NCBI GenBank assembly: GCA_026413945.1
Contig: JAOAJX010000002.1
Coordinates: forward strand, 123,090-187,089
Direction: 5' to 3'
Source of the DNA: Candidatus Iainarchaeum sp.
Lineage (GTDB): Archaea; Iainarchaeota; Iainarchaeia; Iainarchaeales; DTGL01
DNA length: 64,000 bases
This document shows positions 16,130-63,657 of this stretch, piece after piece. The position numbers and the translations under genes are program-made. Positions within the stretch are counted from its first letter, which is position 1; every line of letters starts with the position of its first letter. The notes below the pieces were generated by a model. That model was not told where the DNA came from. It made no database searches and was given only the letters and a program-made list of their open reading frames with translations.

Positions 16130-16564
16130 ATGCATGAATATTCGCTTGCACAAGCTGTTTTGAACAGTGTTGAGGAATTCATTAGTAGAAACAAAGCAAA
16201 GGGCAAAGTTATTGTTAAAATTTCATTTGGTGAGCTTCAGCACCTGGGTGCTGAACAGTTTAAAGACATTCTTCAGAAAGCAGCAAGGGAGAGAAGAATT
16301 AAAGCTGAGTTCTTTGTTGAAAACGAGCTTGCATCATTTAGATGTTTTTCTTGCCATAACGAATGGGAAAATGAGAAAAAGCAGTATATTGTAAAAAGTC
16401 ACTCTCATGAAGAAGACAGTTTATGCCATGAACATGAGCACCACGAATTAGTTGAAGATGTAAGATGCCCAAGGTGTGGAAGCGATGATATTGAAATAAT
16501 AAAAGGAATAGATGTTAAAATAAAGGAGATAATCATTGATACAAAAAAAGCAAGGAGTGAATAA
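16130..16564 (+). CDS. hypA: Hydrogenase nickel chaperone HypA with a His-rich insert
   Basis: MHE N-terminus; CFSC and CPRC zinc pairs; HSHEE..CHEHEHHE insert. Confidence 0.93.
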   Translation: MHEYSLAQAVLNSVEEFISRNKAKGKVIVKISFGELQHLGAEQFKDILQKAARERRIKAEFFVENELASFRCFSCHNEWENEKKQYIVKSHSHEEDSLCHEHEHHELVEDVRCPRCGSDDIEIIKGIDVKIKEIIIDTKKARSE

Positions 16565-30261: not shown

Positions 30262-31575
30262 ATGGACAATAGAAATGCAGCCACAACTTCTTTTCAGGAA
30301 GAAGAAAGTGTTATAGGAAGGTCTCTTTCGGAAAGGGAAAGATATGGAAAAGAAGGCACTGGCTACCTTGGTAGAGTTGTTTTATCTAAAGGTGAAAGGC
30401 CAGTGCTTGGCAGGAAGATCTTAATAGACCTTGCAAAGCCACACATGATTCTTATCTGTGGAAAGCGTGGCTACGGAAAAAGTTACACGATGGCTGTTTT
30501 AATAGAGGAGTTTGCAAGGTTGCCTGTTGCCTTACAAAACAGGATTGCGGTTATAGTCATAGATACGGTTGGCATATTTTGGTCATTAAAAACGCCAAAC
30601 AAATTTGAGACCAATATTTTGCAAGAGTGGGGCTTGAAAGCTGAGGCAACAAACGCAAGAGTATTGGTACCTCAGGGGCTTCTAACATTTTACAAAGATC
30701 GTGGAATACCCGCAGATGGAACTTTCACAATTAAAGCTTCTGAGTTGACCGGCACGGAATGGATGGCTCTTTTTAAGCTTACATGGAAAGACCCAGAAGG
30801 TATATTGATACACCGCGCTGTAGAAGACCTTAAGGAAAAGCTTGGCACATATTTCGGCATAGACGAAATAATAAGCGCTGTGGAAAACTACAAGGAATTT
30901 GATTTTAATACAAGGCAGGCTTTGGTAAACAGATTAAAGATGGCAAAAAGTTGGGGCGTGATTGAGAAAACAGGTACAAAAACTAAGGATATAGCCAGGG
31001 CTGGCTCGATAACAATAATTGATGTTTCTGCTTATAGGCAATCAATAGAAATGGAAGGCGTTCGTGATGTCATTGTTGCTTTGCTTGGCAAAAGACTTTT
31101 TGAAGAAAGGATGCTCTACAGAAAAGAGGAAGAAGCAAAGCTGATGACTGAAAACGTGCGCACGAGCGAAATGCCGCTTGTGTGGTTATTTATAGATGAA
31201 GCACATATATTTATGCCTAAAAGCGGCAAGAACATAGCGCTTAGTGTTCTCCTTGAATGGGCACGTGTTGGTAGGCAACCTGGATTAAGCTTGGTGCTTG
31301 CAACACAGATGCCTGAAAGGTTGCATACTGATTTTCTTTCACAGTGCGATATTTTCATCTCACATCGCCTAACTGCTGGGCCTGATATTGATGCCGTTGG
31401 CACGCTAAGGCCAACATACCTCTATCAGAGTATTGAGAAATATTATGCAGACATACCCACAGGCAAAGGCTTTGCAATAGTGCTAGATGATAATAGCGAA
31501 AAGCTCTGGATGATTAGGGTAAGGCCAAGGTTGAGCTGGGATGCTGGCACAACAGCATCAGCATTCAGGAAATAA
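30262..31575 (+). CDS. HerA-like ATPase (DUF87), short paralog
   Basis: GKRGYGKS; VIDTVG; FIDEAH; RVGRQPG; ATQMP. Confidence 0.88.
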   Translation: MDNRNAATTSFQEEESVIGRSLSERERYGKEGTGYLGRVVLSKGERPVLGRKILIDLAKPHMILICGKRGYGKSYTMAVLIEEFARLPVALQNRIAVIVIDTVGIFWSLKTPNKFETNILQEWGLKAEATNARVLVPQGLLTFYKDRGIPADGTFTIKASELTGTEWMALFKLTWKDPEGILIHRAVEDLKEKLGTYFGIDEIISAVENYKEFDFNTRQALVNRLKMAKSWGVIEKTGTKTKDIARAGSITIIDVSAYRQSIEMEGVRDVIVALLGKRLFEERMLYRKEEEAKLMTENVRTSEMPLVWLFIDEAHIFMPKSGKNIALSVLLEWARVGRQPGLSLVLATQMPERLHTDFLSQCDIFISHRLTAGPDIDAVGTLRPTYLYQSIEKYYADIPTGKGFAIVLDDNSEKLWMIRVRPRLSWDAGTTASAFRK

Positions 31576-31620: not shown

Positions 31621-32058
31621 ATGAATATGCTACTCGGTATAGGCAATGAACTTAATGGTGATGATGCGATTGGTTGCTACATCGCAAGAAATTTCTATAT
31701 GGAAGATTGGGTGTCCATTGATTGTGGAACAGTGCCTGAAAACTACCTTGGTAAGGTAATAAAAGAGAAGCCACAAGTTCTCATAGTAATAGATTCAGCA
31801 CACATGGGCCTCAGAGCCGGCGAGATCAGACGCATACAGAAAGACAGCGCTTGTTCAGCTTTTGTTAGCACACACACACTTGCGCTGAAGGAATTTCTCA
31901 CGGTTGCTGAAAAGCATGCTGGAAAGATAATTCTCATAGGAATACAACCAAAATCCACTGAAATTGGTGAAGAAATTAGCAAAGAATGCCTTAAATCTGC
32001 TAAAAAAATAACAGGCATTCTGAAAAAAGGCAGTTTTGAAAAAATCCCGTGCTTATGA
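31621..32058 (+). CDS. hycI: Hydrogenase maturation endopeptidase (HycI family)
   Basis: LGIGNELNGDDAIG; GTVPEN; IDSA; STHTL; IGIQP. Confidence 0.92.
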   Translation: MNMLLGIGNELNGDDAIGCYIARNFYMEDWVSIDCGTVPENYLGKVIKEKPQVLIVIDSAHMGLRAGEIRRIQKDSACSAFVSTHTLALKEFLTVAEKHAGKIILIGIQPKSTEIGEEISKECLKSAKKITGILKKGSFEKIPCL

Positions 32059-32490
32059 CTCCTTCTTTTTGTTTTTCTTTTTCTGGTTTTCCATAAAGCC
32101 GATCTTTTTATCATAAGTTGAAATTAAAAAGTCTTGCGTTTGTTCTAGGCACTTTACAGGGCATATGTCAACGCATTGGCCACAGAAGGTACATCTTGCT
32201 GCGTAATGCACTATTGCATTTAGCTTTTCATCAAACTCAAGCGCAGCGGCAGGACAAACCTTTATACACTGTTTGCATTTAATGCACCTATCTTTTTCAT
32301 ATTTAAGACGGCCCCTAAATCTTTCTGGAACACTTATTGGTGGATTGAATTTTGCCTTGCCCTTTGACAAATCTGTGATAAACGCCGAAGCATTTCTTGG
32401 TACACGCTTTGTAGGAAAATTATTGGTTGCCGGCTTCGAAAAAAGCTGTTTAAGCATCTGTTTAACCGAAGAGAGCATACAATTGACCAC
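32053..32490 (-). CDS. mbhN: MbhN, 2x[4Fe-4S] ferredoxin-like subunit (NuoI-like)
   Basis: FRG; CIKCKQCIKVCP; CTFCGQCVDICP. Confidence 0.88.
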   Translation of the reverse strand: MVNCMLSSVKQMLKQLFSKPATNNFPTKRVPRNASAFITDLSKGKAKFNPPISVPERFRGRLKYEKDRCIKCKQCIKVCPAAALEFDEKLNAIVHYAARCTFCGQCVDICPVKCLEQTQDFLISTYDKKIGFMENQKKKNKKKES

Positions 32491-33475
32491 CTATGAAAAA
32501 ATCAAGTATTAACAATAAGAGCCCAAAAAGGGAAATAGTAAAAATTGTAAAAATGTAAAAAGCTGATGCTTGGTCTATTCTAAACCTTGCAGTAACAGCA
32601 CTTACAATAAAAACGCTGCAAAACATAACTGCGAAAACTTTGGCTAAGAAGAAAAAGAAGTTAAATATAGGCAAAAAAAACGGATCAAACCCAAAAAATT
32701 GCTCAATATTGCAAGGAAAAAAAAGAAAAACAATAAAAGTTGCAAAGCCAAAGGTACGCAATGCCTGTGTTATGTATAGTAGAGCAAGGTTTAGCCCACT
32801 ATACTCTGCAAGCGCTCCATCTGCAATCTCTGTTTTTGCTTCACTCATATCATGAGGTAATTTACCTGCTTTAGCAGGCATCACAGCAAGAGAGGTGATT
32901 AATAGAAGCAATATGCCAACTGTCCCAAAAGGCCCAACTATAAGCCAAGGTGAAGGCCTTGCTTCTAAGTCTACTGAGAAAACTGGCATGTTTGGCGTTG
33001 TTACGGAGTAAAGCCATGACAAAGAAAATACAATTGTTGCGAGAACAAATTCATAGCTTAGCATAAGCACGAGTTCACGTTGTGCGCCAATGCTTGCAAA
33101 GTTAGAGCCAGAAGCAAAGCCACCGATGGCTAAAGCTAATGGAGGAATCACGAGAAGATATAGCACTAAGATTAAATCACCTTGATTTTTCAGAAGTGCA
33201 TTTTGGCCAGCAAATGGAACATAAAGGAAAAAAACAAGAGCTGTAGAAATAGCTACAAATGGCATGGTGTTGAAAACCCATTTTACAGCTGTTTCTGGTA
33301 CAATGTTCTCTTTCATCAATAGCTTTTTTATATCTATTATTGGTTGCAATATTGGTGGGCCTATTCTTGACTGCATTCTCGCAACAACTTTCCTTTCAAC
33401 GCCGTTTAAGATAAGTGCAATTAAAATTGCTAAAAGCATTAAGCCAAAGGCATTTACAATAAAAATGGGTGTCAT
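32462..33475 (-). CDS. mbhM: MbhM, NuoH-like membrane subunit
   Basis: ERKVVARMQSRIGPP; KLLMKE; PHDMSEAKTEI..AEYSG. Confidence 0.9.
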   Translation of the reverse strand: MTPIFIVNAFGLMLLAILIALILNGVERKVVARMQSRIGPPILQPIIDIKKLLMKENIVPETAVKWVFNTMPFVAISTALVFFLYVPFAGQNALLKNQGDLILVLYLLVIPPLALAIGGFASGSNFASIGAQRELVLMLSYEFVLATIVFSLSWLYSVTTPNMPVFSVDLEARPSPWLIVGPFGTVGILLLLITSLAVMPAKAGKLPHDMSEAKTEIADGALAEYSGLNLALLYITQALRTFGFATFIVFLFFPCNIEQFFGFDPFFLPIFNFFFFLAKVFAVMFCSVFIVSAVTARFRIDQASAFYIFTIFTISLFGLLLLILDFFIGGQLYALFG

Positions 33476-34698
33476 TTGGTAGCACCTCTTAATCTTCTAG
33501 TTTTACCAATGCAAAGCTCGCGAAGTTTTTCCTGATATAATAAAGCACCTTTATCAGCAATAATAGCTCTATTGGCGCAAGACATACAAGGATCAATCGA
33601 GGCAACTATAACAGGAACATCAGCTAGTTCGCTACCAATAAGCATAGTTCGCAAAACATGAAGGTTCGCGTATGTTGGAGCCCTTATTTTCCATGAGCTT
33701 GGTGCATCCGCTTTTTCCATTTTTATGTAGTGTATAAGCTCACCACGGGGTGCTTCAACTAGTGCAACACCTTCGCCTTGCACCTGCTTCAAATTGAATA
33801 GAAGTTTCTGTAGCACAGGCTCAGACACTATAGGGCCCGATGGCATTTCTTTTAAGCACTCTCTTACAATATCTATTGATTGTTTTATTTCGATAGCTCG
33901 CATCACAACCCTATCATAAACATCTCCGCGAGTTTCTTTAAGCAAAAACTCTGGTGTCAAAGCTTCAATGTCAATATCAGGGTATGCAGCATATGGATAA
34001 TCTTGCCTTATGTCCTTTTTTACTCCAGATGCCCTAGCTGTAGGACCAACCGCACAAAATCTTAGAGCATCTTTTTTAGAAAGAAAACCAATATCCCGCG
34101 TCCTCATCTTTATAGTTTTGTCATCAAGAAAAATATTACACATTTTTCCATAGACTTTTTCATAATAATCCATAGCAGCTCTTATTTTTTCTGCCTGCGA
34201 ATCTGATATATCTCGCCTAACGCCACCTATCATCATTATTCCTTTAGTAATCCTATTGCCAGTAAGCATTTCTACTACATCTAAAACTTTCTCGCGAGTC
34301 AACCAAGTATAATGCAAAATTGAATCAAAGCCCATTTCGTGCGCAGCAACACCCAAGAAAAGTAAGTGAGAATGTATTCTTTCAAGCTCAGCAAATATTG
34401 TTCTCAAATACTCAGCTCTCTCTGGTACTGCTATATTTGCAGCGTTTTCAATAGCTATACAAAAAGCCATTGGGTGACATATATTGCAGATACCACATAC
34501 GCGCTCTGCTATATAGAGTGTCTGTATAGGATTTCTCCTTGTGCCAACCCATTCTATGCCGCGGTGCACGTGACCTAATGTGATGTTAACATCGGTTACT
34601 CGCTCGCCGCTTACTGAAACTTCGATCTGCACCGGCTCCTTAAGGGCTGGGTGAATTGGCCCAATAGGTATATTGACTTTCTTTTCATTATCAGCCAT
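33472..34698 (-). CDS. mbhL: MbhL, group 4 [NiFe]-hydrogenase large subunit
   Basis: GPIHPALKEP; HRGIE; L1 ERVCGIC; EAPRGE; L2 DPCMSCANR plus a C-terminal extension. Confidence 0.95.
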   Translation of the reverse strand: MADNEKKVNIPIGPIHPALKEPVQIEVSVSGERVTDVNITLGHVHRGIEWVGTRRNPIQTLYIAERVCGICNICHPMAFCIAIENAANIAVPERAEYLRTIFAELERIHSHLLFLGVAAHEMGFDSILHYTWLTREKVLDVVEMLTGNRITKGIMMIGGVRRDISDSQAEKIRAAMDYYEKVYGKMCNIFLDDKTIKMRTRDIGFLSKKDALRFCAVGPTARASGVKKDIRQDYPYAAYPDIDIEALTPEFLLKETRGDVYDRVVMRAIEIKQSIDIVRECLKEMPSGPIVSEPVLQKLLFNLKQVQGEGVALVEAPRGELIHYIKMEKADAPSSWKIRAPTYANLHVLRTMLIGSELADVPVIVASIDPCMSCANRAIIADKGALLYQEKLRELCIGKTRRLRGATK

Positions 34699-35212
34699 TC
34701 TTTTCACCATTGTGGATATTTTTGGCAAATTTTGATGCACCCTTTTCATCTTTTCTCCATGGGTGAACCCCTGCTAGCGACTCATCAAGAAATGCATTGC
34801 CTGGTGGGAGCCCTCTAAATTCAATACCAAAGAATTCCCTTTTCTCCTTCTCTGAAATCTCTGCACCCGGAATAATGTCAGTTATTGTATCAATCACTGG
34901 TGAGCTTTTTGGCAATTTCACACGCAGCGTAAGAAGAACCTGCGACTTTGGTTTTGCATAATTAAGTGCAAAATGATAGAGTAGTTCTATTTCATTCCCA
35001 AGGTCTGTTCCTGAAGAAACTGAAAAATGTGGATCCTTCTGCAGCAAAGAAATCTTTCTAACAACGCCATGGATATTTTTTGGATCAATTGTTGCCCATA
35101 ACCGGAATGCTTTTGCTTTGCTTTTTCCATGCTGAGTTTCAGAAACCACAATATCTTTAGTTTCATTGCTTAGCAGATTCTTTAATTCGTTGACAAAACT
35201 TTCTGTATTCAT
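34691..35212 (-). CDS. mbhK: MbhK, NuoC-like subunit
   Basis: ELLYHF; EKEKREFFGIEF.G; HPWRKD. Confidence 0.88.
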   Translation of the reverse strand: MNTESFVNELKNLLSNETKDIVVSETQHGKSKAKAFRLWATIDPKNIHGVVRKISLLQKDPHFSVSSGTDLGNEIELLYHFALNYAKPKSQVLLTLRVKLPKSSPVIDTITDIIPGAEISEKEKREFFGIEFRGLPPGNAFLDESLAGVHPWRKDEKGASKFAKNIHNGEKNG

Positions 35213-35637
35213 TTTTTCACCTTTGTCTTTTCAAGTTTTGCCCAAGCCTTTGCGATACCCTCTATAATAGCTTCAGGCCTTGGTGGGCATCCATGGACAT
35301 AAACATCAACAGGTATGAGCTTGTCAACAGGCCCTTCTATGTTGTAAGATTCATAGAAAACACCACATGTTGAGCCACAGTTCCCAACAACAACAACAAG
35401 CTTCGGCTCAGGTGTCTGCTCATATACGCGCAAAAGCTTGTCTTTCATCTGCCTTGTCACTGGGCCGGTAACAAGCAAAACATCCGCGTGCCTGGGTGTT
35501 CCAACTAGCTTTATGCCAAAACGTTCAACATCATAGCGCGGAGTTAGAGCTGCAACAATCTCTATGTCGCAGCCATTGCAAGAACCAGCATTCACATGAA
35601 AAACCCATAATGAGCGTTTCAAGGCATCTATACCCAA
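35209..35637 (-). CDS. mbhJ: MbhJ, hydrogenase small subunit (NuoB-like)
   Basis: SCNGCDIE; PRHADVLLVTG; GNC; GCPPRP; likely TTG start at 35637. Confidence 0.93.
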   Translation of the reverse strand: MGIDALKRSLWVFHVNAGSCNGCDIEIVAALTPRYDVERFGIKLVGTPRHADVLLVTGPVTRQMKDKLLRVYEQTPEPKLVVVVGNCGSTCGVFYESYNIEGPVDKLIPVDVYVHGCPPRPEAIIEGIAKAWAKLEKTKVKK

Positions 35638-35972
35638 ATAAACACCCCTATTGAAAATACTATTAGCAAGATTGAGGCAACAACTATGAACCAAAAAATG
35701 TAATCATTTACTAAGCCAGTATGAATGCCTTTTGTTAAACTATAGTAGTTTTCAGTTGATTTAAAAAAGCCCCAAAAGTAATCGCTTGCTTTTATTATTT
35801 CATAAGCGGAAGGATCATGGCCGGAAATGAACGGTTTTGCTTTCTCCTTGCTATACGCAAAATCTTTTCTACCTAAAAATGAGAAAACATATGACAAAAG
35901 CATGGCTAAGCATGTGAAAAGCAAAAATGCAAGTGGAACCCAAAGGCCGTGATGTGTCTCTACAAAGCTCAA
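35628..35972 (-). CDS. mbhI: MbhI membrane subunit
   Basis: KPFISG; YFWGFF; HTGLVNDYIFW. Confidence 0.85.
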   Translation of the reverse strand: MSFVETHHGLWVPLAFLLFTCLAMLLSYVFSFLGRKDFAYSKEKAKPFISGHDPSAYEIIKASDYFWGFFKSTENYYSLTKGIHTGLVNDYIFWFIVVASILLIVFSIGVFIWV

Positions 35973-37516
35973 AAAACCGCCTCCAAGTAAGCACCTTGGC
36001 TTAAAAGCGCTTTTGCAGCTGGTTCAATTATTGCCTTCAGCACGCTGTCTGGGAAAAGGCCGAAAGATATTATGCAAAGCGCTAGCAGAGACATTGCGAC
36101 AAGCATTGGCTTCGGCACTTCTTTGATATTTTTAAGCTCCTCACGTTCCGGCCCGAGAAAAGCCGAGCAGAATATCTTTACAAAGGAGATAAGTGTGAGC
36201 ATGCTAACTATAACTGCAATTATTGAAAGCAGTGGATTGAAAACAAAAACGGATTCATATATCAAAAACTTTGAGGCAAAGCCATTTGTTGGTGGCAATC
36301 CTGCGATTGCTGCAGCACCTATTATGAAAAAAATTGTTGTAAATGGCATCTTTCTTGCTATGCCGCCAATCTTGTTTAGGTCTCTTTCTTTGGTTGCATA
36401 TATTATTGCACCGGCTGTTAGGAACAAAAGACCTTTATAGAGAGCGTGATTTATTATGTGAAATATGCCCCCTTCCATTGCCAACAGGCCGTGTGAATAA
36501 AAAGTGGTGTTTATTGAAAAAAGGCCTACGCCTACCCCTAGGAGCATGTAGCCGGTTTGCGAAACAGCATGATATGCCATAAGTCGCTTTATGTCCTTTT
36601 GCACCAAGGCCATTGTAACCCCAATAAACATTGATAGCAGCCCAAAGGTAATTATGGCTAAGGCAACTAACTGTATAAGCGAAAAACCGGCAAAAAGCAT
36701 AAATGAAACCCTGAAAAGTGCATAAAGTGATGCTTGGCTAGATACTACCAGAAAAGCAGTTACAGCTGATGGGGCTCGCCCATAAGCGTCTGGCACCCAG
36801 AAATGCATTGGCACTGAGCCGCATTTCATAGCTAAGCCAGCTATGAGAAGCACCATAGCAAAAACATCAACAAATGAAAATTTAATTGCCCTTGAAACAG
36901 CAGCAATATTAAGCATGCCATATTGCCCATAAAGTATGCCTATTCCAAAAAGAATCATAAGAGAAGCTACAGCGCTAACTATGAGATAATTGTAAGCTGA
37001 TATCAAAGACAGTGGCTTTTCTTTTCTAAAAGCTATAAGACCTGTTGAGCTTATTGAAAGAATCTCTATGAAAACAAATAAGTTGAAAAGGTCTCCTGTG
37101 CAAAGAATGCCAAATACGGACGCAGCCATAATAAAGAACAAGCTAAAGTATTTGCCAAAACCCTTACGAATAGAACCAAAAGAATAGATTGTTGAAACAA
37201 AAAATATTATGCTTGAGCTGAGAATCATGAATGCTGAGAAAGCATCAGCAACAAGAACTATTCTTACTGGTACTCTCAATCCAGACGGCATTGTAAGCCC
37301 TGGTTCTGTTGCACCCAACGTATAAACCAAAGTTCCAGATACAAAAATAGTATACGAAACAAAAAATCCAATTGTTACGGTAACAATAACTGAAAAAATT
37401 ATGTAAAGGTTTCTTAAAAATCTGTTAATCTTCTCAAAAAGCGGTGTTAAGAATGCAGAAAGCAAAGGAACTGCTATTAGCAATGCAATACCATTAGTAG
37501 AAAAAAACTCAATCAT
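35969..37516 (-). CDS. mbhH: MbhH, MrpD-like antiporter subunit
   Basis: TGDLFNLFVFIE; PMHFWVPDAY; QKDIKRLMAY; HALYKGLLFL; PPTNGFASK. Confidence 0.92.
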   Translation of the reverse strand: MIEFFSTNGIALLIAVPLLSAFLTPLFEKINRFLRNLYIIFSVIVTVTIGFFVSYTIFVSGTLVYTLGATEPGLTMPSGLRVPVRIVLVADAFSAFMILSSSIIFFVSTIYSFGSIRKGFGKYFSLFFIMAASVFGILCTGDLFNLFVFIEILSISSTGLIAFRKEKPLSLISAYNYLIVSAVASLMILFGIGILYGQYGMLNIAAVSRAIKFSFVDVFAMVLLIAGLAMKCGSVPMHFWVPDAYGRAPSAVTAFLVVSSQASLYALFRVSFMLFAGFSLIQLVALAIITFGLLSMFIGVTMALVQKDIKRLMAYHAVSQTGYMLLGVGVGLFSINTTFYSHGLLAMEGGIFHIINHALYKGLLFLTAGAIIYATKERDLNKIGGIARKMPFTTIFFIIGAAAIAGLPPTNGFASKFLIYESVFVFNPLLSIIAVIVSMLTLISFVKIFCSAFLGPEREELKNIKEVPKPMLVAMSLLALCIISFGLFPDSVLKAIIEPAAKALLSQGAYLEAVF

Positions 37517-37877
37517 TACTAAGAGCCTCCTTTATGTCTCTAATGTCAAGCGATTTCGTTTTTCTGTAAAGCAAAACTGAAAGTGAAAGCATTAATGCAG
37601 TTACAGCCAAACTAATTACTATGCTTGTAAGTGTTAATGCTTGTGGCACTGGCAAAACCATTTTTAATTGTGATTGAGAGGGATCTATTGGTGCATCTGT
37701 AAATATTGGCGCTATGCCGCAATACCTATAGCCAAGTGAGATTAAGAAAAGATTCACTGCTGAAGCAATTATAGCCAATCCCATGGTGATTTTTATCATG
37801 TTGCTCCTAAAGACTAAAGCATAGAAGCCAACCAGCGAAAGAAGTGCAACTGCCAAGAAGTATGAGTTTAAAATCAA
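37509..37877 (-). CDS. mbhG: MbhG, MrpC-like subunit
   Basis: NMIK; AVNLF; PVPQALTLTSIVI. Confidence 0.9.
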   Translation of the reverse strand: MILNSYFLAVALLSLVGFYALVFRSNMIKITMGLAIIASAVNLFLISLGYRYCGIAPIFTDAPIDPSQSQLKMVLPVPQALTLTSIVISLAVTALMLSLSVLLYRKTKSLDIRDIKEALSND

Positions 37878-37878
37878 A

Positions 37879-38340
37879 TTAATCAGCTCCCTTAAAAATT
37901 AAAAAGAATATTAATGTTAGCCCGCAGCAAACCTCGAGCCCAACAAAGAAATTCATTAATGGGATAACACCTGCGCTACTGAAGATTCCAGAATTTGGAC
38001 CGAAAGGTACCTTTTCGCCAAATAAAACCCCACTATTTGCCAAAAAATTAAAGAAAAATGTATTGCCCATACCTAAGAAAGCAATGCCTATAAAGCCAAT
38101 TAATGCAATGCATTCCAAAGCAACGAGTACTTCTCCTTTAATGCTTTCAATTGCCTTCTTTCCTAAACTTACAAAAAGCAGTGCAAAGGCAGTTGCCATT
38201 ATTGCACCACCCTGAAAACCACCGCCTGGCGTAAGATGGCCATGTGCAATTACATAAATACCAAAGGTTATAATCGGAACCATTAACCCCAACGCAGCAA
38301 ATTCAATTATTTTTGAATTCTTCTCGTTTTCCGCGTGCAA
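37879..38340 (-). CDS. mbhF: MbhF, MrpB-like subunit
   Basis: HGHLTPGGGFQGG; GLEV; GGAGG RBS before the TTG at 38340. Confidence 0.9.
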   Translation of the reverse strand: MHAENEKNSKIIEFAALGLMVPIITFGIYVIAHGHLTPGGGFQGGAIMATAFALLFVSLGKKAIESIKGEVLVALECIALIGFIGIAFLGMGNTFFFNFLANSGVLFGEKVPFGPNSGIFSSAGVIPLMNFFVGLEVCCGLTLIFFLIFKGAD

Positions 38341-38341
38341 T

Positions 38342-38599
38342 TCACTTCCTCCTAAATAAAAGGAAAACACCACTCACTGCAGCAAATAGCACAGTAGATT
38401 CTCCAAGTGTATCGAAGCCACGATAGTCAAACACTACTGCTGACACGACATTATTGCAAGCGGCCTCTTTCTGCGAATTTTCTATGATATAGTGATCCAT
38501 TGATGTTCTTTGTGGAGAGCCAAAAGGCCTTAGCATCAACATTGCAAAAACGAAAAAAAAAGCGAATATCGAAAAGAACACAAGCTTAAGTTGTTTCAT
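38342..38599 (-). CDS. mbhE: MbhE subunit
   Basis: NVVSAVVFDYRGFDTLGE. Confidence 0.9.
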   Translation of the reverse strand: MKQLKLVFFSIFAFFFVFAMLMLRPFGSPQRTSMDHYIIENSQKEAACNNVVSAVVFDYRGFDTLGESTVLFAAVSGVFLLFRRK

Positions 38600-38832
38600 T
38601 TTTCCACCCTTGAAGTATGTTTTATCGCTAGCACAAAAATTGCTGTGCTAAGACAGGCACCAACTGCCGCTTCGGTTATAGCAACATCTGGTGCCTGCAA
38701 GAGATAATATTGCAGTGCCAAAAGCAAACTCATTACTGCAAGAAACGCTGTGCTTATGAGCAAGTCTTTTACTTTCACAGCAAGCGCAGCACTAAGAACT
38801 ATTAGCATCAGTGAAAGTGACTCAATAATCAT
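38596..38832 (-). CDS. mbhD: MbhD subunit (DUF4040-like)
   Basis: LQAPDVAITEAAVG. Confidence 0.9.
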   Translation of the reverse strand: MIIESLSLMLIVLSAALAVKVKDLLISTAFLAVMSLLLALQYYLLQAPDVAITEAAVGACLSTAIFVLAIKHTSRVEK

Positions 38833-39161
38833 TCCTTCACCTTCGCAAGTGCGTCATCGAATGCTAACTTCGGCTTTAGGCCTGATTTATAAGCGGCCCT
38901 TGTTATAGCATGTGAGCCTGTTGCACTACCTATGAAAAGAAAAATAAGCGCTAAGAAGGAATGCAACCCAAGTGAAAATAGACCATTGGCAATTGCATAA
39001 AGTATGACACCAAATATGATGCCCATTGCACCAAAGGTTGTGCAAAGTGTTCCAGCATGTGCTCTGGCGTATGCATCAGGGAATCTGTGGAGGCCTATTG
39101 CTCCAAGCAAATGAAATATAAAACCAAGTGCGAGCAATGCAATAACAAGCCCAGCCATCAT
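38829..39161 (-). CDS. mbhC: MbhC, MrpG-like subunit
   Basis: GLHRFPDAYARAHA; SHAITRAAY. Confidence 0.9.
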   Translation of the reverse strand: MMAGLVIALLALGFIFHLLGAIGLHRFPDAYARAHAGTLCTTFGAMGIIFGVILYAIANGLFSLGLHSFLALIFLFIGSATGSHAITRAAYKSGLKPKLAFDDALAKVKE

Positions 39162-39421
39162 TTTTTCACCATGTAATTTGCAAAGTAAAGCGTGCTTCCA
39201 AAGGAAAATATAGAGTAAACTATGGCTACGTCAACAAATATTGAATGCCGGTAGTATGCTGCTAACAGAATTAATGCACACACAACAATAGTGGTTGCTA
39301 CATCTAAGCTAATAACCCTATCAGCAATTGTCGGCCCTAGTGCAATTCGCAAAATTGCGATCGCCAAAGGCAGCATTAAAGATATTGCTGCTGAAAGCAA
39401 AATGAGCTCCAAAGCAATCAT
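39158..39421 (-). CDS. mbhB: MbhB, MrpF-like subunit
   Basis: GPTIADRVISLD; DVAIVY. Confidence 0.9.
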   Translation of the reverse strand: MIALELILLSAAISLMLPLAIAILRIALGPTIADRVISLDVATTIVVCALILLAAYYRHSIFVDVAIVYSIFSFGSTLYFANYMVKK

Positions 39422-39957
39422 GAAGCAATCCTCCGAATCCATTTGTGAAAGTTTCCGCAGACATCTTCAATTTTCGGCTTTGGACCTTTAGAATTAAGAC
39501 AGTGGATATAAAGCTTTCCATTACGCTCATCAAGAGTTAGTGTGCCAGGAGTCAGAGTTATTGAATTTCCAAGCAAAACCAATGCAATGCTGTTCTTAAG
39601 CTTTGGTTCTATTTCCACAATTGCTGTCTTAGTTTTACCAGTTATAACAATGTATGCAACAGTAAGATTTGCTTTTATAAGAGCAAAAAGAAATGGACCC
39701 AACACATAAACACAAAAGACGAACCATCTAAAAGGATTTAAATATTTTAACTGGAAATTTATATCCAGTCTCATTAGAATTAAGTTCGCTATCAGCGATG
39801 GAAATAATGAAAAAATAGGGCCTAAAATCAATGATTCTGCACTCCATAAAATAATATTTCCCGAGAAAGCTGTTAGAAATAACCAAAAAGCCAAAGATAA
39901 GAGGTAAAAAAATACAAAAAATTTCAAGATCTCACCAGGCGTTTTAAAATTTTTCAT
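39418..39957 (-). CDS. mbhA: MbhA, MrpE-like subunit
   Basis: KANLTVA; NSITLTPGTLT; LYIHCL. Confidence 0.9.
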   Translation of the reverse strand: MKNFKTPGEILKFFVFFYLLSLAFWLFLTAFSGNIILWSAESLILGPIFSLFPSLIANLILMRLDINFQLKYLNPFRWFVFCVYVLGPFLFALIKANLTVAYIVITGKTKTAIVEIEPKLKNSIALVLLGNSITLTPGTLTLDERNGKLYIHCLNSKGPKPKIEDVCGNFHKWIRRIAS

Positions 39958-40017
39958 TTTGGCGCCATATTTACGATTTTATAGAAGCAATTAAGCCAGG
40001 TAATCTTTTTATTTTTT

Positions 40018-40992
40018 TTGTGGTGTATTGTGGTAATGGAAAAAGGAGCTAAGCTTGTTTTCGCAACTGCACTAGTAAGTGGCGTTAGCATATTCTTGAA
40101 TTCTGTGGCAGTAAATACCCTAAAAGTTGAAGGAATGAATTCTTTGATATTTACTACACTAAATAATCTGCTTGTTGCGATAATGCTTGGGTTAGCTATA
40201 TTAATGTTGGGAAAAAAACCATGTATAATATTTGAGAGAAAGCTTCTGTCGAGATTCATAGTAATAGGCCTGATAGGTGGTTGTCTGCCCTTCTTCATGT
40301 ATTTTCACGCCCTTTCGCTTATTACATCACCAGCACAAGCCGGCTTTATACACAAAACCCTTTTTATATGGGCAACATTCTTTGCAATTTTTCTGATAAA
40401 AGAGAGGGTTAACATTTGGTTTTTTGTTGCTAGTTTGCTGCTATTGGCAGGCAATTATTTTATGAGTATGCCAAAAGCCGTGTTTGGCTTCGCGGAAGCG
40501 CTTGCATTAGGCGCAACAATTCTTTGGGCCCTTGAAAATGTAATAGCAAGAAAAATGCTTATAAAAGAAAAGATTGGCGGCCTTGACTTAGCTTTTGCAA
40601 GGATGTTTTATGGATCAATCTTTATGGTCATTGGATTGCTTATATTTATGCCAGCAACGGTGTTCTCACCAAAAATTGGTTATAGTGCACTCATGTGGTT
40701 AGTAATAACAGCATTGATGTTATTGCTATACGTCTCAACATACTATAGTGGCTTAAAGCACATAGAGGTTCATAAGGCAACAAGCATTCTTCTGATAGAA
40801 CAGCCCATAACTTTATTACTCTCATTTGCTTTTGAACAAACAACAGCATCTACATTAAGGCAAAGTGATGTTATAAGTGATGTTATTGGCGCTAGTTTAA
40901 TATTGTTTGGAATTTTTGCTCTTTTCAGTGCTTCTCATTTGATTGGCAAAGTAATTCACAAGGTGCCTATGTGGGTAAAATCGAAGCATTAA
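40018..40992 (+). CDS. EamA/DMT-family transporter
   Basis: About 10 TM helices in two EamA-like halves; FIHKTLF; ATILWALE; divergent from the mbh operon. Confidence 0.82.
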   Translation: MWCIVVMEKGAKLVFATALVSGVSIFLNSVAVNTLKVEGMNSLIFTTLNNLLVAIMLGLAILMLGKKPCIIFERKLLSRFIVIGLIGGCLPFFMYFHALSLITSPAQAGFIHKTLFIWATFFAIFLIKERVNIWFFVASLLLLAGNYFMSMPKAVFGFAEALALGATILWALENVIARKMLIKEKIGGLDLAFARMFYGSIFMVIGLLIFMPATVFSPKIGYSALMWLVITALMLLLYVSTYYSGLKHIEVHKATSILLIEQPITLLLSFAFEQTTASTLRQSDVISDVIGASLILFGIFALFSASHLIGKVIHKVPMWVKSKH

Positions 40993-41693
40993 GCAGGGCA
41001 TGCAAATATGCCCTTGCGCCAAACAAATTGGGCTATTGTGGTAAATGCGATTATAGTGAAATTTACATTTCATTTTTAAAAAACCCAAAACAAGAAGATG
41101 TGCCAAAAATAGAAGAATCATTAAAATCATTCAGGGCAATGTATTCATACCTTAAGCTCATAGCAGAATACAACAACGTTAACCCATTCTCTGAAAAAGC
41201 AATTGAGGCCTACTGGCTTGGGAACTCTTTGCTCGACAACGTGCCTGTTGAAGCTGTAAAAAGCCTTATAAAAAACGATTTCATTGAAATACCACTTAAA
41301 CAAAGAGAGATGAAAGCCGATTTCTTGAAAAAAAAAGTTTTGTTGCAGCACTCATTCCATGTCCTTTATATAAACTTTCTCAACCCCAGATTAAAGCCAA
41401 TAGCAAAAAATATGGATAATTGCATAGTAAAATATGGTAAAGTTTTAGAAATTTGGAAAGACAAAGTCAAGACGAAAAGTATGGCGCTTAGTTACAACTT
41501 GGGCGAAATTAAAGTTATGGAGAAAGTGCTTTCTTTTGAAAACCCTTATAGATATGATCTTAAAAAAGGTGATCTTGTATCAGCACATTGGGGCAACATA
41601 ATCGAAAAAATAGATAAGATTGGCAAGAGCAAAATAAAAGAATCTACATTTAGCAATCTTGCACTTGCAAACTCATATTTGGGGCATTTTTGA
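40971..41693 (+). CDS. DUF6390-like protein
   Basis: YALAPNKLGYCG; YSYLKLIA; EAYWLGN; HSFHV; DNC; GDLVSAHWG. Confidence 0.78.
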   Translation: MGKIEALSRACKYALAPNKLGYCGKCDYSEIYISFLKNPKQEDVPKIEESLKSFRAMYSYLKLIAEYNNVNPFSEKAIEAYWLGNSLLDNVPVEAVKSLIKNDFIEIPLKQREMKADFLKKKVLLQHSFHVLYINFLNPRLKPIAKNMDNCIVKYGKVLEIWKDKVKTKSMALSYNLGEIKVMEKVLSFENPYRYDLKKGDLVSAHWGNIIEKIDKIGKSKIKESTFSNLALANSYLGHF

Positions 41694-43876: not shown

Positions 43877-44359
43877 TTAATTCATAATCCAAACGTAATA
43901 GTTTAAAATCATTGCAAATGTAACCCAAGCAAGATATGGCAAAAGCAGCATGGCTGCCTTAAATGATATCCTTGAAAAAACATTTATTGTCAGTACTATT
44001 GAAAGCCACATAAGTATTATGCAAATAAGCCCTAAAAAAGGCGACTCGAGGCCAAAGAAAAGCAAAGACCATAGAATGTTCAAAAAAAGCTGAACAGCAA
44101 AAACATAAAGAGCCAGTTTAAGCTTTTCTTTTTTTGTGTTTGATTCAAGCACTAAGTAGAGAGATATGCCCATAAGGGTGTAAAGTGTTGACCAGGCAGG
44201 CCCAAAGACCCAATTGGGCGGTGTAAAAGAGGGTTTTTCAAGGTAAGCGTACCAGCCAGCAATCTGTGGGTAAGTGAATATTGAACCAAAAAGGCCAGCT
44301 AATTGGCACAAAAAAATGCAACCAAAAAGCCTAAGAAATTTTATTTGCCTAAGAGACAT
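43877..44359 (-). CDS. tspO: TspO/MBR tryptophan-rich sensory protein
   Basis: WYAYLEKPSFTPPNWVFGPAW; LNILWS; PYLAWVTFA. Confidence 0.95.
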   Translation of the reverse strand: MSLRQIKFLRLFGCIFLCQLAGLFGSIFTYPQIAGWYAYLEKPSFTPPNWVFGPAWSTLYTLMGISLYLVLESNTKKEKLKLALYVFAVQLFLNILWSLLFFGLESPFLGLICIILMWLSIVLTINVFSRISFKAAMLLLPYLAWVTFAMILNYYVWIMN

Positions 44360-44412: not shown

Positions 44413-44625
44413 TTAAAAAGCTCTCTTATGCAGCCTTAGTATCTCCTGCGCTTCTTTTTCACTTAATTTGGCCACAACCATCTTGTATTGCACGAGCACC
44501 CAGTCACCTATCTTTGCCTTAGCCATTGTGTTATCCGCTTCCCTCTTTTCATTTCCGTAATCAACTAAAGCTCTTTTTCCTTTCTGGCTCAGGGCTACAA
44601 CACGACCTGGATATGCAAGGCACAA
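44413..44625 (-). CDS. hypC: HypC/HupF-family hydrogenase chaperone (atypical)
   Basis: MCLAYPGRVV; GDWVLVQ (usual His replaced by Gln); EKEAQE. Confidence 0.85.
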   Translation of the reverse strand: MCLAYPGRVVALSQKGKRALVDYGNEKREADNTMAKAKIGDWVLVQYKMVVAKLSEKEAQEILRLHKRAF

Positions 44626-61793: not shown

Positions 61794-62384
61794 TTATATT
61801 CTGCGGCAAAGTTTCACATAACAACAGTCTTTACATCTTTTGCTAAATGTGGTTGGCTTTGGCATAATTTCTGTCACAATTATTTCATTTATGCCTTTTA
61901 TTGTTTCCTTAACTTTGGCTATGTCACTATTACTTATTTTTATTTTTACCAGCTCATTACTTTGCTCAAACTTTATGAAAGCAAATGGGGTAGAATAGCC
62001 AAACAGTCTATTTATGAGCAAACATTCTGCAAAAACCTGTATTTTTTGTGAATTGTAGAGTTTCCTTGGCTTTTTGGAGTATTTATATTCTATTGGAAAA
62101 GCCTCTTTCTTATCTTGGTTGATGATCATACAATCAAGAACAGTCCTAAGGTTTAACTCATTAGATTCTAAGTAAACGCCATATTTTTTTGGCAGTTTTG
62201 GAAATTCTTTTATGATCTTGTTTCTCTTGCTTTTTTTATTAAATAAGCTGTGCAATTCACGGCCTTTAAGCTCTTTTATAGTAGTTGCTTGAGGAATTTT
62301 CAGAACCCTTTCAAAGTAAACTATTCTTGGACAATACTGGAAATTCATAAGATCTTTTATTGTGAGAAACTGTTGCAAATCCAT
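61794..62384 (-). CDS. cas4: CRISPR-associated exonuclease Cas4
   Basis: YCPR; PIEYK; C-terminal CKDCCYVKLC. Confidence 0.92.
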   Translation of the reverse strand: MDLQQFLTIKDLMNFQYCPRIVYFERVLKIPQATTIKELKGRELHSLFNKKSKRNKIIKEFPKLPKKYGVYLESNELNLRTVLDCMIINQDKKEAFPIEYKYSKKPRKLYNSQKIQVFAECLLINRLFGYSTPFAFIKFEQSNELVKIKISNSDIAKVKETIKGINEIIVTEIMPKPTTFSKRCKDCCYVKLCRRI

Positions 62385-62669
62385 TCAACCCACTATTTCA
62401 AAACCATGAGATTTAAGCACGTCTGCATTAAAATCGCCCAATATTATTTTATTCGAAAAACATTGTTTACATGCAGGGATAATAAAAATACAGTCGCTGC
62501 TTTTTATGTGCTCTTTACAATTTATGGCAAGCATCTCCGCCTTATTCTTGCTTAGGAATCCGCAGAAAGCACTTTTTTGGATCCTTTTCAAGCCGAAGTT
62601 TTTGCACTCTTCTGAAACCTTAAGGCGAAGGTTATTATCGCTAATATCGTAAATCACCCAGTAAATCAC
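62385..62669 (-). CDS. cas2: CRISPR-associated Cas2
   Basis: VIYDISD; GLKRIQKSAF; likely GTG start at 62669. Confidence 0.93.
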   Translation of the reverse strand: MIYWVIYDISDNNLRLKVSEECKNFGLKRIQKSAFCGFLSKNKAEMLAINCKEHIKSSDCIFIIPACKQCFSNKIILGDFNADVLKSHGFEIVG

Positions 62670-62670
62670 A

Positions 62671-63657
62671 TTACCACCTATAGATGAAAGGCTCAAAACA
62701 ATTTTCGTCGTCAAGCAAGTAATTAGTTATGCTTCTTGCTTGTAGCAATAAAATATCTTGAAAAGAGAGATGTTTATCTCTAAAATTTACCTTTGTATGT
62801 AATCTCGCCATGACTTCAGAGACAATTTTCTCTCTTCCTTTCTTATTCAAAACCATTTCTTCGTCAGAATTATGTTCAAAAAGTTTCTCTGAAACTTGTT
62901 TTTGTACAAAAAGTGTTACAATAGCCCTGTCAACTATTATCGGCCTAAAGCCTTCGATAAGATCTAAAACCATTGATGGCTTGTTATATCGGTCGGTATG
63001 CAAAAAACCCAAGTAAGGGTCTAGGCCAGCCAAAATACATGCTTTCTCGGTTTCACCATAAAGTATGCCATAGCCGTAATTTAAAAGTAGATTTACTGTA
63101 TCATTCGAGTCTTTATCTCTGCCTTCAAAAGGCAATATTTTTGTTAGACACTCAAAATAACCTTTAGCTGCAGTGCCTTCCAAACCAAATAAATCGTCCC
63201 TTATGTATTCGATGTTGCCAACCAACTTATCTAGTTTTTTACATAAGTCAATATTGTAGTTAGCAACACTGCTAAAGTCAATTTCCCTTGACTTGCTCAA
63301 AGATTTCAAAAAATATGCTTGATTCAAAATCTTTGCTTTGATGAGTTTTTTAGCAATTTCTGCGCCTTTTTCGGAATAATAAGCCTCTAGCTGTTTTCTT
63401 CTAGTTAAAGTAGTACCACCCAGTCTACATGGAAAGATGCGCCCAATAGGCTTACCTTTTGAGCTAAAGAAAACGATATCAACATCATTTTTAAGAGCTA
63501 ATTTAATTGCACTAACCGAAATACTAGAGGCTGAAGCTATGATTATTTGTTCAACTAAGGCAACAGCAAATTCTTCTTTTTTGTCACTAGTTTTAACAAC
63601 AAATCTTTCTCCCTTTTTTCCCAAAAAAGAGCCAAAGTCATTCAAGATAAGCTGCAT
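62671..63657 (-). CDS. cas1: CRISPR-associated integrase Cas1
   Basis: EGTAAKGYF; NLLLNYGY; GLDPYLGFLH; DLIEGFRP. Confidence 0.96.
   Translation of the reverse strand: MQLILNDFGSFLGKKGERFVVKTSDKKEEFAVALVEQIIIASASSISVSAIKLALKNDVDIVFFSSKGKPIGRIFPCRLGGTTLTRRKQLEAYYSEKGAEIAKKLIKAKILNQAYFLKSLSKSREIDFSSVANYNIDLCKKLDKLVGNIEYIRDDLFGLEGTAAKGYFECLTKILPFEGRDKDSNDTVNLLLNYGYGILYGETEKACILAGLDPYLGFLHTDRYNKPSMVLDLIEGFRPIIVDRAIVTLFVQKQVSEKLFEHNSDEEMVLNKKGREKIVSEVMARLHTKVNFRDKHLSFQDILLLQARSITNYLLDDENCFEPFIYRW

Follow-up and report, generated by a model that had tools for sequence, protein, structure and literature searches.

We analysed a 64,000-nt stretch of DNA from Candidatus Iainarchaeum sp. (assembly GCA_026413945.1, JAOAJX010000002.1:123,090-187,089), referred to here as the window, whose positions serve as coordinates below unless another locus is named. 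It carries the operon of a membrane-bound [NiFe] hydrogenase (Mbh), an enzyme in which ferredoxin oxidation and H2 evolution are coupled to ion pumping, and, next to it, the genes of an EamA-family transporter and of a DUF6390 protein. We consider it likely that the operon encodes a genuine and complete group 4d Mbh, inherited within its family and accompanied by a non-canonical set of maturation genes, in which EamA-DUF6390 and HypC are the proposed supply of iron. Judging from the sequences, the enzyme would be active and ion-coupled, and DUF6390 and EamA may have a part in its assembly. The operon alone has already been catalogued as group 4d in a supplementary table, and the accessory gene set is the new aspect.

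The window encodes a complete 14-gene Mbh

Fourteen co-directional open reading frames (ORFs) run on the minus strand from 39957 to 32053, and neighbours overlap by 1-67 nt or are separated by a 1-nt gap. Their Pfam matches follow the order MNHE, MrpF, MnhG, MbhD, MbhE, MnhB, Oxidored_q2 and Proton_antipo_M in the first half of the operon, and a weak Oxidored_q3, Oxidored_q6, Complex1_30kDa, Complex1_49kDa with NiFeSe_Hases, NADHdh and two Fer4 in the second. The full Mbh gene set (Mrp-like A-H and I-N) was recovered by Pfam for 13 genes and by a match to chain I of the Pyrococcus furiosus MBH structure (6cfw_I) for the 14th. The genes of the operon and the convergent hycI are as follows.

39418..39957, minus strand: mbhA (MnhE-like); PF01899, E 1.7e-27; synteny kept in relatives
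39158..39442, minus strand: mbhB (MrpF-like); PF04066, E 1.6e-14
38829..39161, minus strand: mbhC (MnhG-like); PF03334, E 1.5e-20
38596..38832, minus strand: mbhD; PF13244 (MbhD), E 8.7e-19
38342..38599, minus strand: mbhE; PF20501 (MbhE), E 1.8e-12
37879..38373, minus strand: mbhF (MnhB-like); PF04039, E 1.3e-21
37509..37877, minus strand: mbhG (NuoK/MrpC-like); PF00420, E 1.3e-22
35969..37516, minus strand: mbhH, antiporter-like subunit; PF00361, E 7.5e-57; best PDB match 6cfw_H, E 8.8e-98
35628..35972, minus strand: mbhI; sole PDB match 6cfw_I, E 1.3e-9; weak PF00499
35209..35694, minus strand: mbhJ, small subunit; PF01058, E 3.5e-33; Cys 39, 42, 106 and 136 of the ORF; true start probably downstream of the TTG
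34691..35212, minus strand: mbhK (NuoC-like); PF00329, E 1e-16
33472..34698, minus strand: mbhL, [NiFe] large subunit; PF00346 and PF00374; 6cfw_L, E 2.3e-116; the ORF extends to 34749
32462..33475, minus strand: mbhM (NuoH-like); PF00146, E 4.3e-62
32053..32490, minus strand: mbhN, 2x[4Fe-4S] ferredoxin-like; Fer4 families; two CxxCxxCxxxC motifs
31621..32058, plus strand: hycI, endopeptidase for the large-subunit C-terminus; PF01750, E 1.8e-15; convergent with mbhN

The start of mbhL is probably M18 of its ORF (34698), which gives a protein of 408 aa; the database copy of the protein has the same length. A 114-aa ORF at 39954-40298 was rejected as a 15th gene: searches of Pfam, the PDB and the related loci matched nothing to it, and since it overlaps the EamA gene on the opposite strand it was taken as spurious.

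The large subunit MbhL holds the motifs L1 (RVCGIC) and L2 (DPCMSC), with all four Ni-binding Cys, and continues for 34 residues beyond the last of them. The deposited 6cfw_L chain stops at an Arg aligned with R394, three residues past the last Cys. Both the C-terminal tail and an adjacent endopeptidase gene are present in the window, from which we predict that the tail is cleaved off, and hycI adjoins mbhN in f1 and f21 relatives too. The cluster motifs of MbhN (CIKCKQCIKVC and CTFCGQCVDIC), together with the four Cys of MbhJ, make up the set required for an iron-sulphur relay. Among solved structures, MbhL scored 392 bits with 6cfw_L, 238 with 7z0s_E (HycE of formate hydrogenlyase), 157 with 6u8y_L of MBS and at most 178 with complex I subunits.

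These results agree with an earlier note on this DNA, which had read a complete mbhA-N in Thermococcales order, in overlapping or near-abutting frames, from the sequence: the ORF map and the Pfam matches give this arrangement, and an identical A-N order is found in Thermococcus sp. (L102) as well as in Dehalococcoidia (L056) and Bipolaricaulota (L092). The four Ni-binding Cys, the C-terminal extension and the convergent hycI were likewise as described there. Its view that this is a true hydrogenase-type Mbh, not Mbs or Mbx, is supported by the four Cys and by the score of 392 bits with P. furiosus MBH vs 157 with MBS. The likeness to P. furiosus MBH (PDB 6CFW, group 4d) extends to the 14 subunits A-N in the same order, with Mrp-like and NuoBCDHI-like modules, to the 6cfw chains as best solved matches of MbhL, MbhH and MbhI, and to the four Ni-binding Cys, the processed C-terminus and the associated endopeptidase, which are here read from genes. 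Unlike P. furiosus, the host is a 0.95-Mb DPANN archaeon of a lineage usually called fermentative. MbhL is about 50% identical to the Thermococcus proteins and lies in another clade of the tree. We are confident that the structural genes make up a complete Mbh of the ordinary kind, predicted to be of group 4d, and that its host is unusual without being unprecedented.

Probable inheritance of the operon within its family

The window is part of a 187-kb contig. Its assembly (G000; 948,649 bp) comprises 21 contigs, nine of them >23 kb, and was rated 92% complete and 0.37% contaminated, with 39 tRNA genes (ARAGORN). The GC content ranges from 0.30 to 0.46 between contigs and from 0.37 to 0.39 among the nine large ones. 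The nearest named records are called 'Candidatus Iainarchaeum archaeon' (L031 and L033, with 85% and 64% MbhL identity), a genus placed in Nanobdellati (DPANN) > Iainarchaeota, and the closest database copies of both MbhL and DUF6390 carry the name 'Candidatus Diapherotrites archaeon'. All 40 relatives that we compared have genomes of 0.5-1.5 Mb. The size of the genome and the lineage of the nearest named records identify the host as a DPANN archaeon, as proposed earlier. The other genes of the window are archaeal housekeeping genes (thermosome, ValS, SMC, Alba, Sua5) together with cas1, cas2 and cas4.

A chimeric contig or a recent transfer was considered and rejected. The window contains no N and has an even GC content, its 4-mer composition correlates with that of the remaining genome at 0.971-0.975 in the operon region vs 0.972-0.986 elsewhere, and the flanks of the operon are syntenic in relatives.

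We then examined the distribution of MbhL in a set of 41 genomes (G000 and its 40 relatives; E<=0.001) and in an evenly drawn sample of 201 Iainarchaeota genomes (E<=1e-30), most of them metagenome-assembled genomes (MAGs) that are 67-99% complete. In the set of 41, MbhL was found in 25, including all 12 other members of the family (three genera; 60-84% identity). Twenty-seven of the 201 phylum genomes were positive: 13 of the family including G000, 10 of the 21 in a second family (f21), and four others that carry more distant group 4 types. The A-N order and the convergent hycI were retained in every f1 and f21 locus long enough to show them, both Cys motifs (CGIC, DPCxxC) and the C-terminal tail were kept in the 20/20 Iainarchaeota loci fetched, and all four Cys were kept in 119/121 database relatives. 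Hence, Mbh is already widespread in this lineage, a circumstance that the earlier note had named as speaking against its reading. As a separate observation, the Iainarchaeota loci L117 (G011:C79), L118, L119, L120 and L121 encode group 4 large subunits that are more distant, with 36-43% identity to the window MbhL; their clusters are shorter and differ in the number of antiporter-like subunits, and G011, a genome of the family, has both types.

An unrooted MbhL tree of 95 rows (IQ-TREE, quick maximum likelihood, LG+G4, SH-aLRT only; three partial and three duplicate rows omitted) recovered the family as a starred clade (99) and f21 as another (98), the two being joined with one archaeal row, again with a star (95). 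This joint clade is nested in a starred 56-row cluster of Thermoplasmatota, Methanomicrobia, DHVE2/Aciduliprofundum and Dehalococcoidia; Thermococcus falls outside the cluster, and the Iainarchaeum locus L082 sits elsewhere in the tree. The topology fits one old acquisition from, or exchange with, Thermoplasmatota-like lineages, which would have been followed by vertical descent. A horizontal acquisition, as previously suggested, is thus plausible given the nesting among Thermoplasmatota and Dehalococcoidia, but its direction cannot be told because the tree is unrooted. In summary, the operon is probably inherited within the family, being neither newly acquired nor misassembled.

For the named orthologue with 85% identity, the HydDB call in print is 4d, the expected subgroup. 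Three bins of Iainarchaeales (family DTGL01) appear in Supplementary Data 10 of PMC11094006 as '[NiFe] Group 4d, hydrogen generation', and two of the scaffold names are those in the titles of L031 and L033. The accessible main-text passages of that paper do not discuss these bins. In other DPANN phyla, passages of the literature describe group 4 membrane-bound hydrogenases in MAGs of non-thermal Aenigmarchaeota (PMC8407114) and a group 4e enzyme in the Micrarchaeon 'Ca. Fermentimicrarchaeum limneticum' (cited in PMC8561730). For the Diapherotrites genome AR10, the latter paper gives group 3b. As far as these passages go, the Aenigmarchaeota and Micrarchaeon enzymes are alike in being membrane-bound, in belonging to small-genome archaea and in being read as producers of H2 and an ion gradient; they differ in belonging to other phyla, the Micrarchaeon one in being of subgroup 4e, and the passages give neither a gene-by-gene architecture nor maturases. 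Our literature search, which covered texts in part, found no discussion of Mbh in Iainarchaeota or Diapherotrites, and a mention elsewhere is possible. An Mbh in DPANN is therefore only partly unexpected, being family-wide, with a 4d orthologue in print and group 4 enzymes in two other DPANN phyla.

HypA, HypC and HycI are kept, and HypD, HypE and HypF are not found

Two further maturation genes lie in the window.

16130..16564, plus strand: hypA, Ni metallochaperone; PF01155, E 4.2e-19; MHE start, CFSC and CPRC motifs
44413..44625, minus strand: hypC, 70 aa, TTG start; PF01455, 59 bits; Gln at the canonical His51 position

The motifs found in HycI and HypA are those usual for these proteins. 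Besides G000, HypA was over the cut-off in 11 of the 12 family genomes, and HypC and HycI in 10 each. These three proteins are the ones that come into contact with the large subunit. To our knowledge, HypD, HypE and HypF build the Fe(CN)2CO group in every system that has been studied. In the passages of PMC12134894 available, all six Hyp proteins are required for anaerobic cofactor synthesis.

We searched G000 for the remaining maturases with Pfam and NCBIfam profiles, by tblastn and by an unfiltered hidden Markov model (HMM) search of six-frame ORFs. There was no candidate for HypD (PF01924), and the HypE and HypF models gave nothing over the cut-off, the weak HypF matches being the paralogue domains of Sua5 and Kae1. 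With HypD, HypE, HypF and HypB from two relatives as queries, tblastn found nothing at E<=1e-3. The best values of the unfiltered search were E 1.5 for HypD, 0.6 for HypE and 6e-5 for HypF, the last on Sua5. The GTPase-type HypB (TIGR00073) was not found in G000, and the ATPase-type archaeal HypB was not searched for. The earlier note had proposed looking for these genes, and since hypD, hypE, hypF and GTPase-type hypB were not found, activity of the Mbh cannot be taken for granted. This also sets G000 apart from P. furiosus.

The same pattern was seen in relatives. In the set of 41, HypD was present in two genomes, HypE over the cut-off in two, and HypF over the cut-off in one plus one split copy, all in G009 and G010, and GTPase-type HypB occurred only in G007 and G009. 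None of hypD, hypE and hypF was found in the 6/6 congeners (84-96% complete), and HypD was not found in 7/7 genomes of the genus when G000 is included. No hypD, hypE or hypF was found in a 99%-complete genome of the order that consists of one contig and has a NiFe large subunit, HypC and DUF6390; its compact cluster consists of small subunit, large subunit, a weak HycI-like gene, EamA, DUF6390 and hypC. Across the phylum sample, HypD was found in 5/201 genomes, and in only three of the 27 with a group 4 large subunit. The nearest relatives outside the Iainarchaeota behave differently. The Thermoplasmatota Mbh shares the 56-row cluster and the subunit set with the window operon (MbhL 54-60% identical), but hypC, hypD, hypE and hypF adjoin the operon in L035, L054, L057 and L065, with a canonical HypC (LVHAGFA), and some of the operons are rearranged (L038 has J-K-L-N, then A-I and M). 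Among the 80 Mbh loci of other phyla that we compared, 13 contain HypD, HypE or HypF.

These absences could be due to genes that exist but were systematically missed, on unbinned contigs, on a plasmid or in an island that is hard to assemble, in which case maturation would be canonical and DUF6390 an extra helper. The MAG nature of most genomes and the presence of hypCDEF in two family genomes (G009 and G010) would allow for this. Moreover, the G009 hyp contig is 7.5 kb long and has no gene in common with G000 at E 1e-8, so hyp contigs can be hard to place. However, HypD is missing from all seven genomes of the genus, among them G000 with its nine large contigs, from the one-contig genome and from 24/27 group 4 genomes, and the unfiltered search of G000 returned only noise. 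In addition, the site at which G010 carries the genes is contiguous in G000 and without hyp genes. In G010, hypC-D-E-F lie on a 33-kb contig in an 11.7-kb stretch between the gene of an FAD-dependent protein and ftsZ, and in G000 a 2-kb interval with a rhomboid and a ZIP gene separates the orthologues of the two flanking genes (67% and 84% identity). We therefore regard systematically missed genes as very improbable. The G010 stretch (L023, G010:C6 9384-15654) also adds a Na/Ca exchanger gene and a MoxR (AAA_3)-DUF58-BatA/VWA set that are not at the G000 site, and the whole 11.7-kb block differs between genera.

Another explanation of the missing hypD, hypE and hypF is that the complex is no longer a hydrogenase, and holds another metal or none, serving as a ferredoxin-driven ion pump with a different acceptor or as an Mrp-type antiporter module. 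There are precedents, as Mbs/Mbx and complex I lost the hydrogenase chemistry and kept the architecture, and 6u8y is among the MbhL matches. The known non-hydrogenase relatives have, however, lost the Ni-binding Cys, which are kept here in all loci fetched and in nearly all database relatives. The C-terminal extension, hycI, hypA (with its MHE start) and hypC are retained family-wide, and we know of no use for any of these beyond NiFe-site assembly. This change of function appears rather improbable to us. What has been retained (the ligand cysteines, the C-terminal tail, the processing protease and the chaperones for Ni and Fe) argues instead that a NiFe site is still built.

The EamA-DUF6390 pair accompanies hydrogenases that lack HypD

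The two genes that flank mbhA on its upstream side overlap each other by 22 nt.

40018..40992, plus strand: EamA/DMT-family transporter; PF00892, E 2e-17; divergent from mbhA
40971..41693, plus strand: DUF6390 protein, helical N-domain and HypC-like C-domain; PF19927, E 2.7e-33

An EamA-DUF6390-(PPase)-hypC block flanks mbhA in the family, and in another family (L119) EamA, DUF6390 and hypC stand beside a different group 4 hydrogenase. In the set of 41, DUF6390 was found in 21 genomes, namely in 21 of the 25 with a large-subunit match and in 0/16 without; the large-subunit-positive genomes without it are G009 and G010, both with hypCDEF, G033 and G035. DUF6390 lies tail-to-tail with hypC, within about 1 kb, in 12 relatives. 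In the phylum sample, it occurred in 56/201 genomes (55 over the cut-off), with zero overlap with the five that have HypD. Among the 27 group 4 genomes, DUF6390 is present in 22 and HypD in three; of the other two, one carries a DUF6390 fragment interrupted by stops and one carries neither gene.

When metagenome contigs were scanned with a DUF6390 alignment of 12 rows, 80 loci (536 kb) were kept. Of the 59 loci with >=900 bp before DUF6390, 48 have a co-directional EamA gene directly upstream, and in three loci the two genes form one reading frame of 557-581 aa (L177:5014-6738, L180:121-1866 and L194:223-1896). This natural fusion ties the soluble HypC-like protein to the C-terminus of the transporter. 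In the 27 loci with >=2.5 kb on both sides, a NiFe large subunit was found in 21, a small subunit in 16 and HypC in eight; 19 contain a small protein that is weakly HycI-like (three of four tested, E 1e-3 to 4e-3), and five have no large subunit, small subunit or HypC. There was no tblastn match to HypD, HypE, HypF or HypB in the 80 DUF6390-centred loci. Conversely, of the 80 Mbh loci compared, EamA-DUF6390 was found only in the Iainarchaeum locus L033. The named DUF6390 homologues come from Diapherotrites, Micrarchaeota and one candidate phyla radiation (CPR) bacterium. The ESM Atlas, taken only as a lead, returned the DUF6390 family again and weak HypC-annotated clusters. Some of the DUF6390-linked loci, such as L189 (9548-11416, minus strand), encode a small subunit (Oxidored_q6) fused to a Pyr_redox_2/rubredoxin-reductase-like flavoprotein, 622 aa in all, which suggests a directly NAD(P)H-linked minimal hydrogenase.

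The C-terminal half of DUF6390 is predicted to be a HypC-like domain

The AlphaFold2 model of DUF6390 (pLDDT 96.6, pTM 0.93) has helices up to residue 151, followed by a five-strand barrel and a long helix. The top five Foldseek matches are four HypC entries (2z1c, 3vyt, 3vys and 3vyr, one of them by two chains), with a best E of 7e-3 and a probability of 1.0. The all-against-all aligner VIA placed Thermococcus kodakarensis HypC (2z1c_A) first, with Z 5.6, an rmsd of 2.3 A and 71/71 residues aligned, and Escherichia coli HypC second with Z 4.9; these Z scores are modest. The VIA alignment pairs residues 151-233 of the model with 2-72 of the 2z1c chain and puts C151 on C2 of HypC. A profile comparison by hhalign (probability 85.8%, E 5e-6) also put C151 on C2, and H206 on the His51 position. 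Direct matching of PF01455 to a DUF6390 homologue gave E 0.065 and 13.8 bits, under the gathering cut-off of 28.5. In 35 DUF6390 homologues, H127, C151 and H206 are invariant and C23 is near-invariant.

In the accessible part of PMC12134894, the proposed iron ligands are C2 and H51 of HypC and C41 of HypD. On the evidence of the model and the alignments, the C-terminal half of DUF6390 is a predicted HypC-like domain that keeps the iron-holding Cys and His of HypC. In the stand-alone HypC encoded beside DUF6390, His51 is replaced by Gln in the window copy and in the 11 copies aligned, and by Gln, Ser, Arg, Lys or Tyr in 20/20 copies from the metagenome loci, while the HypC of the hypCDEF clusters (G009, G010 and the Thermoplasmata loci) reads LVHVGFA or LVHAGFA. 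Compared with the HypC-HypD scaffold, HypC is thus present, and the DUF6390 C-domain aligns with it over its full length, Cys on Cys2 and His on His51. The differences are that no HypD (the [4Fe-4S] scaffold protein), HypE or HypF was found, that the Cys of DUF6390 is internal (residue 151), not at a processed N-terminus, and that the His51 position is replaced in the stand-alone HypC proteins beside it.

The N-terminal domain was treated separately. Folded alone, it reached pLDDT 88.5, with a best Foldseek E of 1.2 and a best VIA Z of 5.2 to carrier-protein-like helix bundles; an assignment to these was rejected, and the domain was left unassigned, because both scores are below the chance level for helical models. 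A complex prediction of DUF6390 with HypC (score 0.06, mark 0.32) carries no weight either way.

A proposed role for EamA-DUF6390 in supplying iron

Taken together, DUF6390-EamA is the best candidate for the missing maturation function, and a candidate only, because of its neighbourhood, its fusion to EamA, its HypC-like domain, the loss of His51 in its partner and its complementarity with HypD. We propose that EamA-DUF6390 would work with HypC to supply the iron moiety. An extended form of this proposal, in which Iainarchaeota and other lineages with small genomes and this module make an active NiFe(CN)2CO site without HypD, HypE and HypF, EamA-DUF6390 and the His51-less HypC replacing the HypCD scaffold and supplying or importing the diatomic ligands or a pre-formed iron group, seems to us possible, although doubtful.

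Several points weigh against an iron-supplying role for the pair and the coupled enzyme that goes with it. It is not obvious how a 240-aa DUF6390 protein and a transporter could turn carbamoyl phosphate into cyanide, the task of HypE and HypF, and the pair does not account for the cyanide and CO ligands. Neither Foldseek nor VIA gave a convincing fold match for the DUF6390 N-terminal domain. The mutual exclusion of DUF6390 and HypD rests on five HypD genomes from about four lineages, among which kin are non-independent, and most of the genomes are MAGs, 67-99% complete. In the ESM Atlas, a lead only, two DUF6390 clusters have Actinomycetota as their most frequent taxon. No RNA run was listed as containing window positions 32053-41693; they were in one DNA run only, which may be the source. 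Finally, the Na+ motif of the ATP synthase c subunit, described below, is putative.

The question of the ligands could also be answered by salvage. An Fe(CN)2CO group, or a donor of cyanide or CO, would then be taken from a host or from the surroundings, imported by EamA, captured by DUF6390 at the membrane and handed to HypC. This would account for the position of EamA directly upstream of DUF6390 and for the three fusions, and it would suit the origin of the named homologues in DPANN archaea and a CPR bacterium. In addition, the [FeFe] hydrogenase of G000 belongs to a group that, in the passages available, is reported mostly without maturases of its own. Against this, neither a transporter for such species nor free Fe(CN)2CO as a metabolite is known, and EamA-family proteins carry many unrelated small molecules, often in the direction of export. 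We thus consider salvage unlikely, and retain iron supply by EamA-DUF6390 together with HypC as the working proposal.

A comparable gene context has been described for the 3b-related 'hyd2' clusters of CPR bacteria (Jaffe et al. 2020, PMC7304191), where a HypC-like family and 'unknown genes' are in the context. The main text of that paper does not contain the word 'maturation', and the passages at hand do not name DUF6390 or EamA. From what they describe, the hyd2 systems are alike in their small genomes, minimal NiFe hydrogenase, truncated small subunit and HypC-like neighbour, and a compact cluster of this kind is found in the one-contig Iainarchaeota genome (small and large subunits, a weakly HycI-like protein, EamA, DUF6390 and HypC). 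Unlike Mbh, hyd2 is a cytoplasmic, 3b-related enzyme. 'DUF6390' was in no paper found by our literature search, and in the partly available texts we found no discussion of missing HypDEF in DPANN or CPR; mention elsewhere is possible.

Partners for energy coupling

The earlier note had suggested chemiosmotic energy conservation and proposed checking for an A-type ATPase and ferredoxin oxidoreductases. Both were found in G000: an A-type ATP synthase with subunits I, c, C, F, A, B and D in a single operon, the gamma, alpha and beta genes of POR, and an IOR-like pair adjoining an aminotransferase gene. The c subunit sequence includes GQG...SETQAIY, which may resemble the Na+-binding signature. 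The presence of the ATP synthase operon and of the oxidoreductases makes chemiosmotic coupling plausible. By homology to P. furiosus MBH, H2 evolution from ferredoxin would be coupled to ion translocation. Ferredoxin reduced by oxidoreductases of the POR/IOR type would be the donor, and MbhN and MbhJ would conduct its electrons to the MbhL NiFe site, where protons are reduced to H2; the energy would drive ion translocation through MbhM and MbhH with the Mrp-like subunits A-G, and the resulting gradient could be used by the A-type ATP synthase. The catalytic subunit HydA of an [FeFe] hydrogenase is also encoded in G000 (G000:C16:75789-76631, L211; PF02906, E 2e-92; 604-aa frame). G000 thus encodes hydrogenases of two classes, and for both the standard cofactor maturases seem to be missing, although no search aimed at HydEFG was made.

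Other features of the window

A CRISPR adaptation module occupies 61794-63657 on the minus strand, near the end of the window, with cas4 at 61794-62384, cas2 at 62385-62714 and cas1 at 62671-63657. Between a HAD hydrolase gene and hypC lies the gene of a TspO/MBR family protein (PF03073, E 3e-49; 43877-44359, minus strand). TspO/MBR proteins are tryptophan-rich sensory, porphyrin-binding membrane proteins, and such a gene is unexpected in a reduced genome. Two HerA/DUF87-type ATPases are encoded at 12292-15219 (minus strand; 975 aa) and 30262-31575 (plus strand). The second, of 437 aa, adjoins hycI and is 96% identical in the locus of the closest relative (L126), vs 74-92% for the mbh genes.

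Significance

The presence of Mbh and ATP synthase tempers the purely fermentative picture of DPANN, as at least two families of Iainarchaeota may conserve energy chemiosmotically, through a ferredoxin-driven pump and an ATP synthase in a genome of less than 1 Mb. A conserved hydrogenase with an intact metal site, Ni and Fe chaperones and a protease persists in dozens of genomes without HypD, HypE and HypF, and a HypC-domain protein and a transporter occupy the place that hypDEF have in sister lineages. In the accessible passages of PMC11216029, the same question of maturation is raised for archaeal [FeFe] hydrogenases without HydEFG. If the Mbh proves active, the smallest set of genes able to assemble a [NiFe] cofactor would differ from that given in textbooks, and a HypDEF-independent route, if true, would be a second and as yet undescribed maturation path of [NiFe] hydrogenases.

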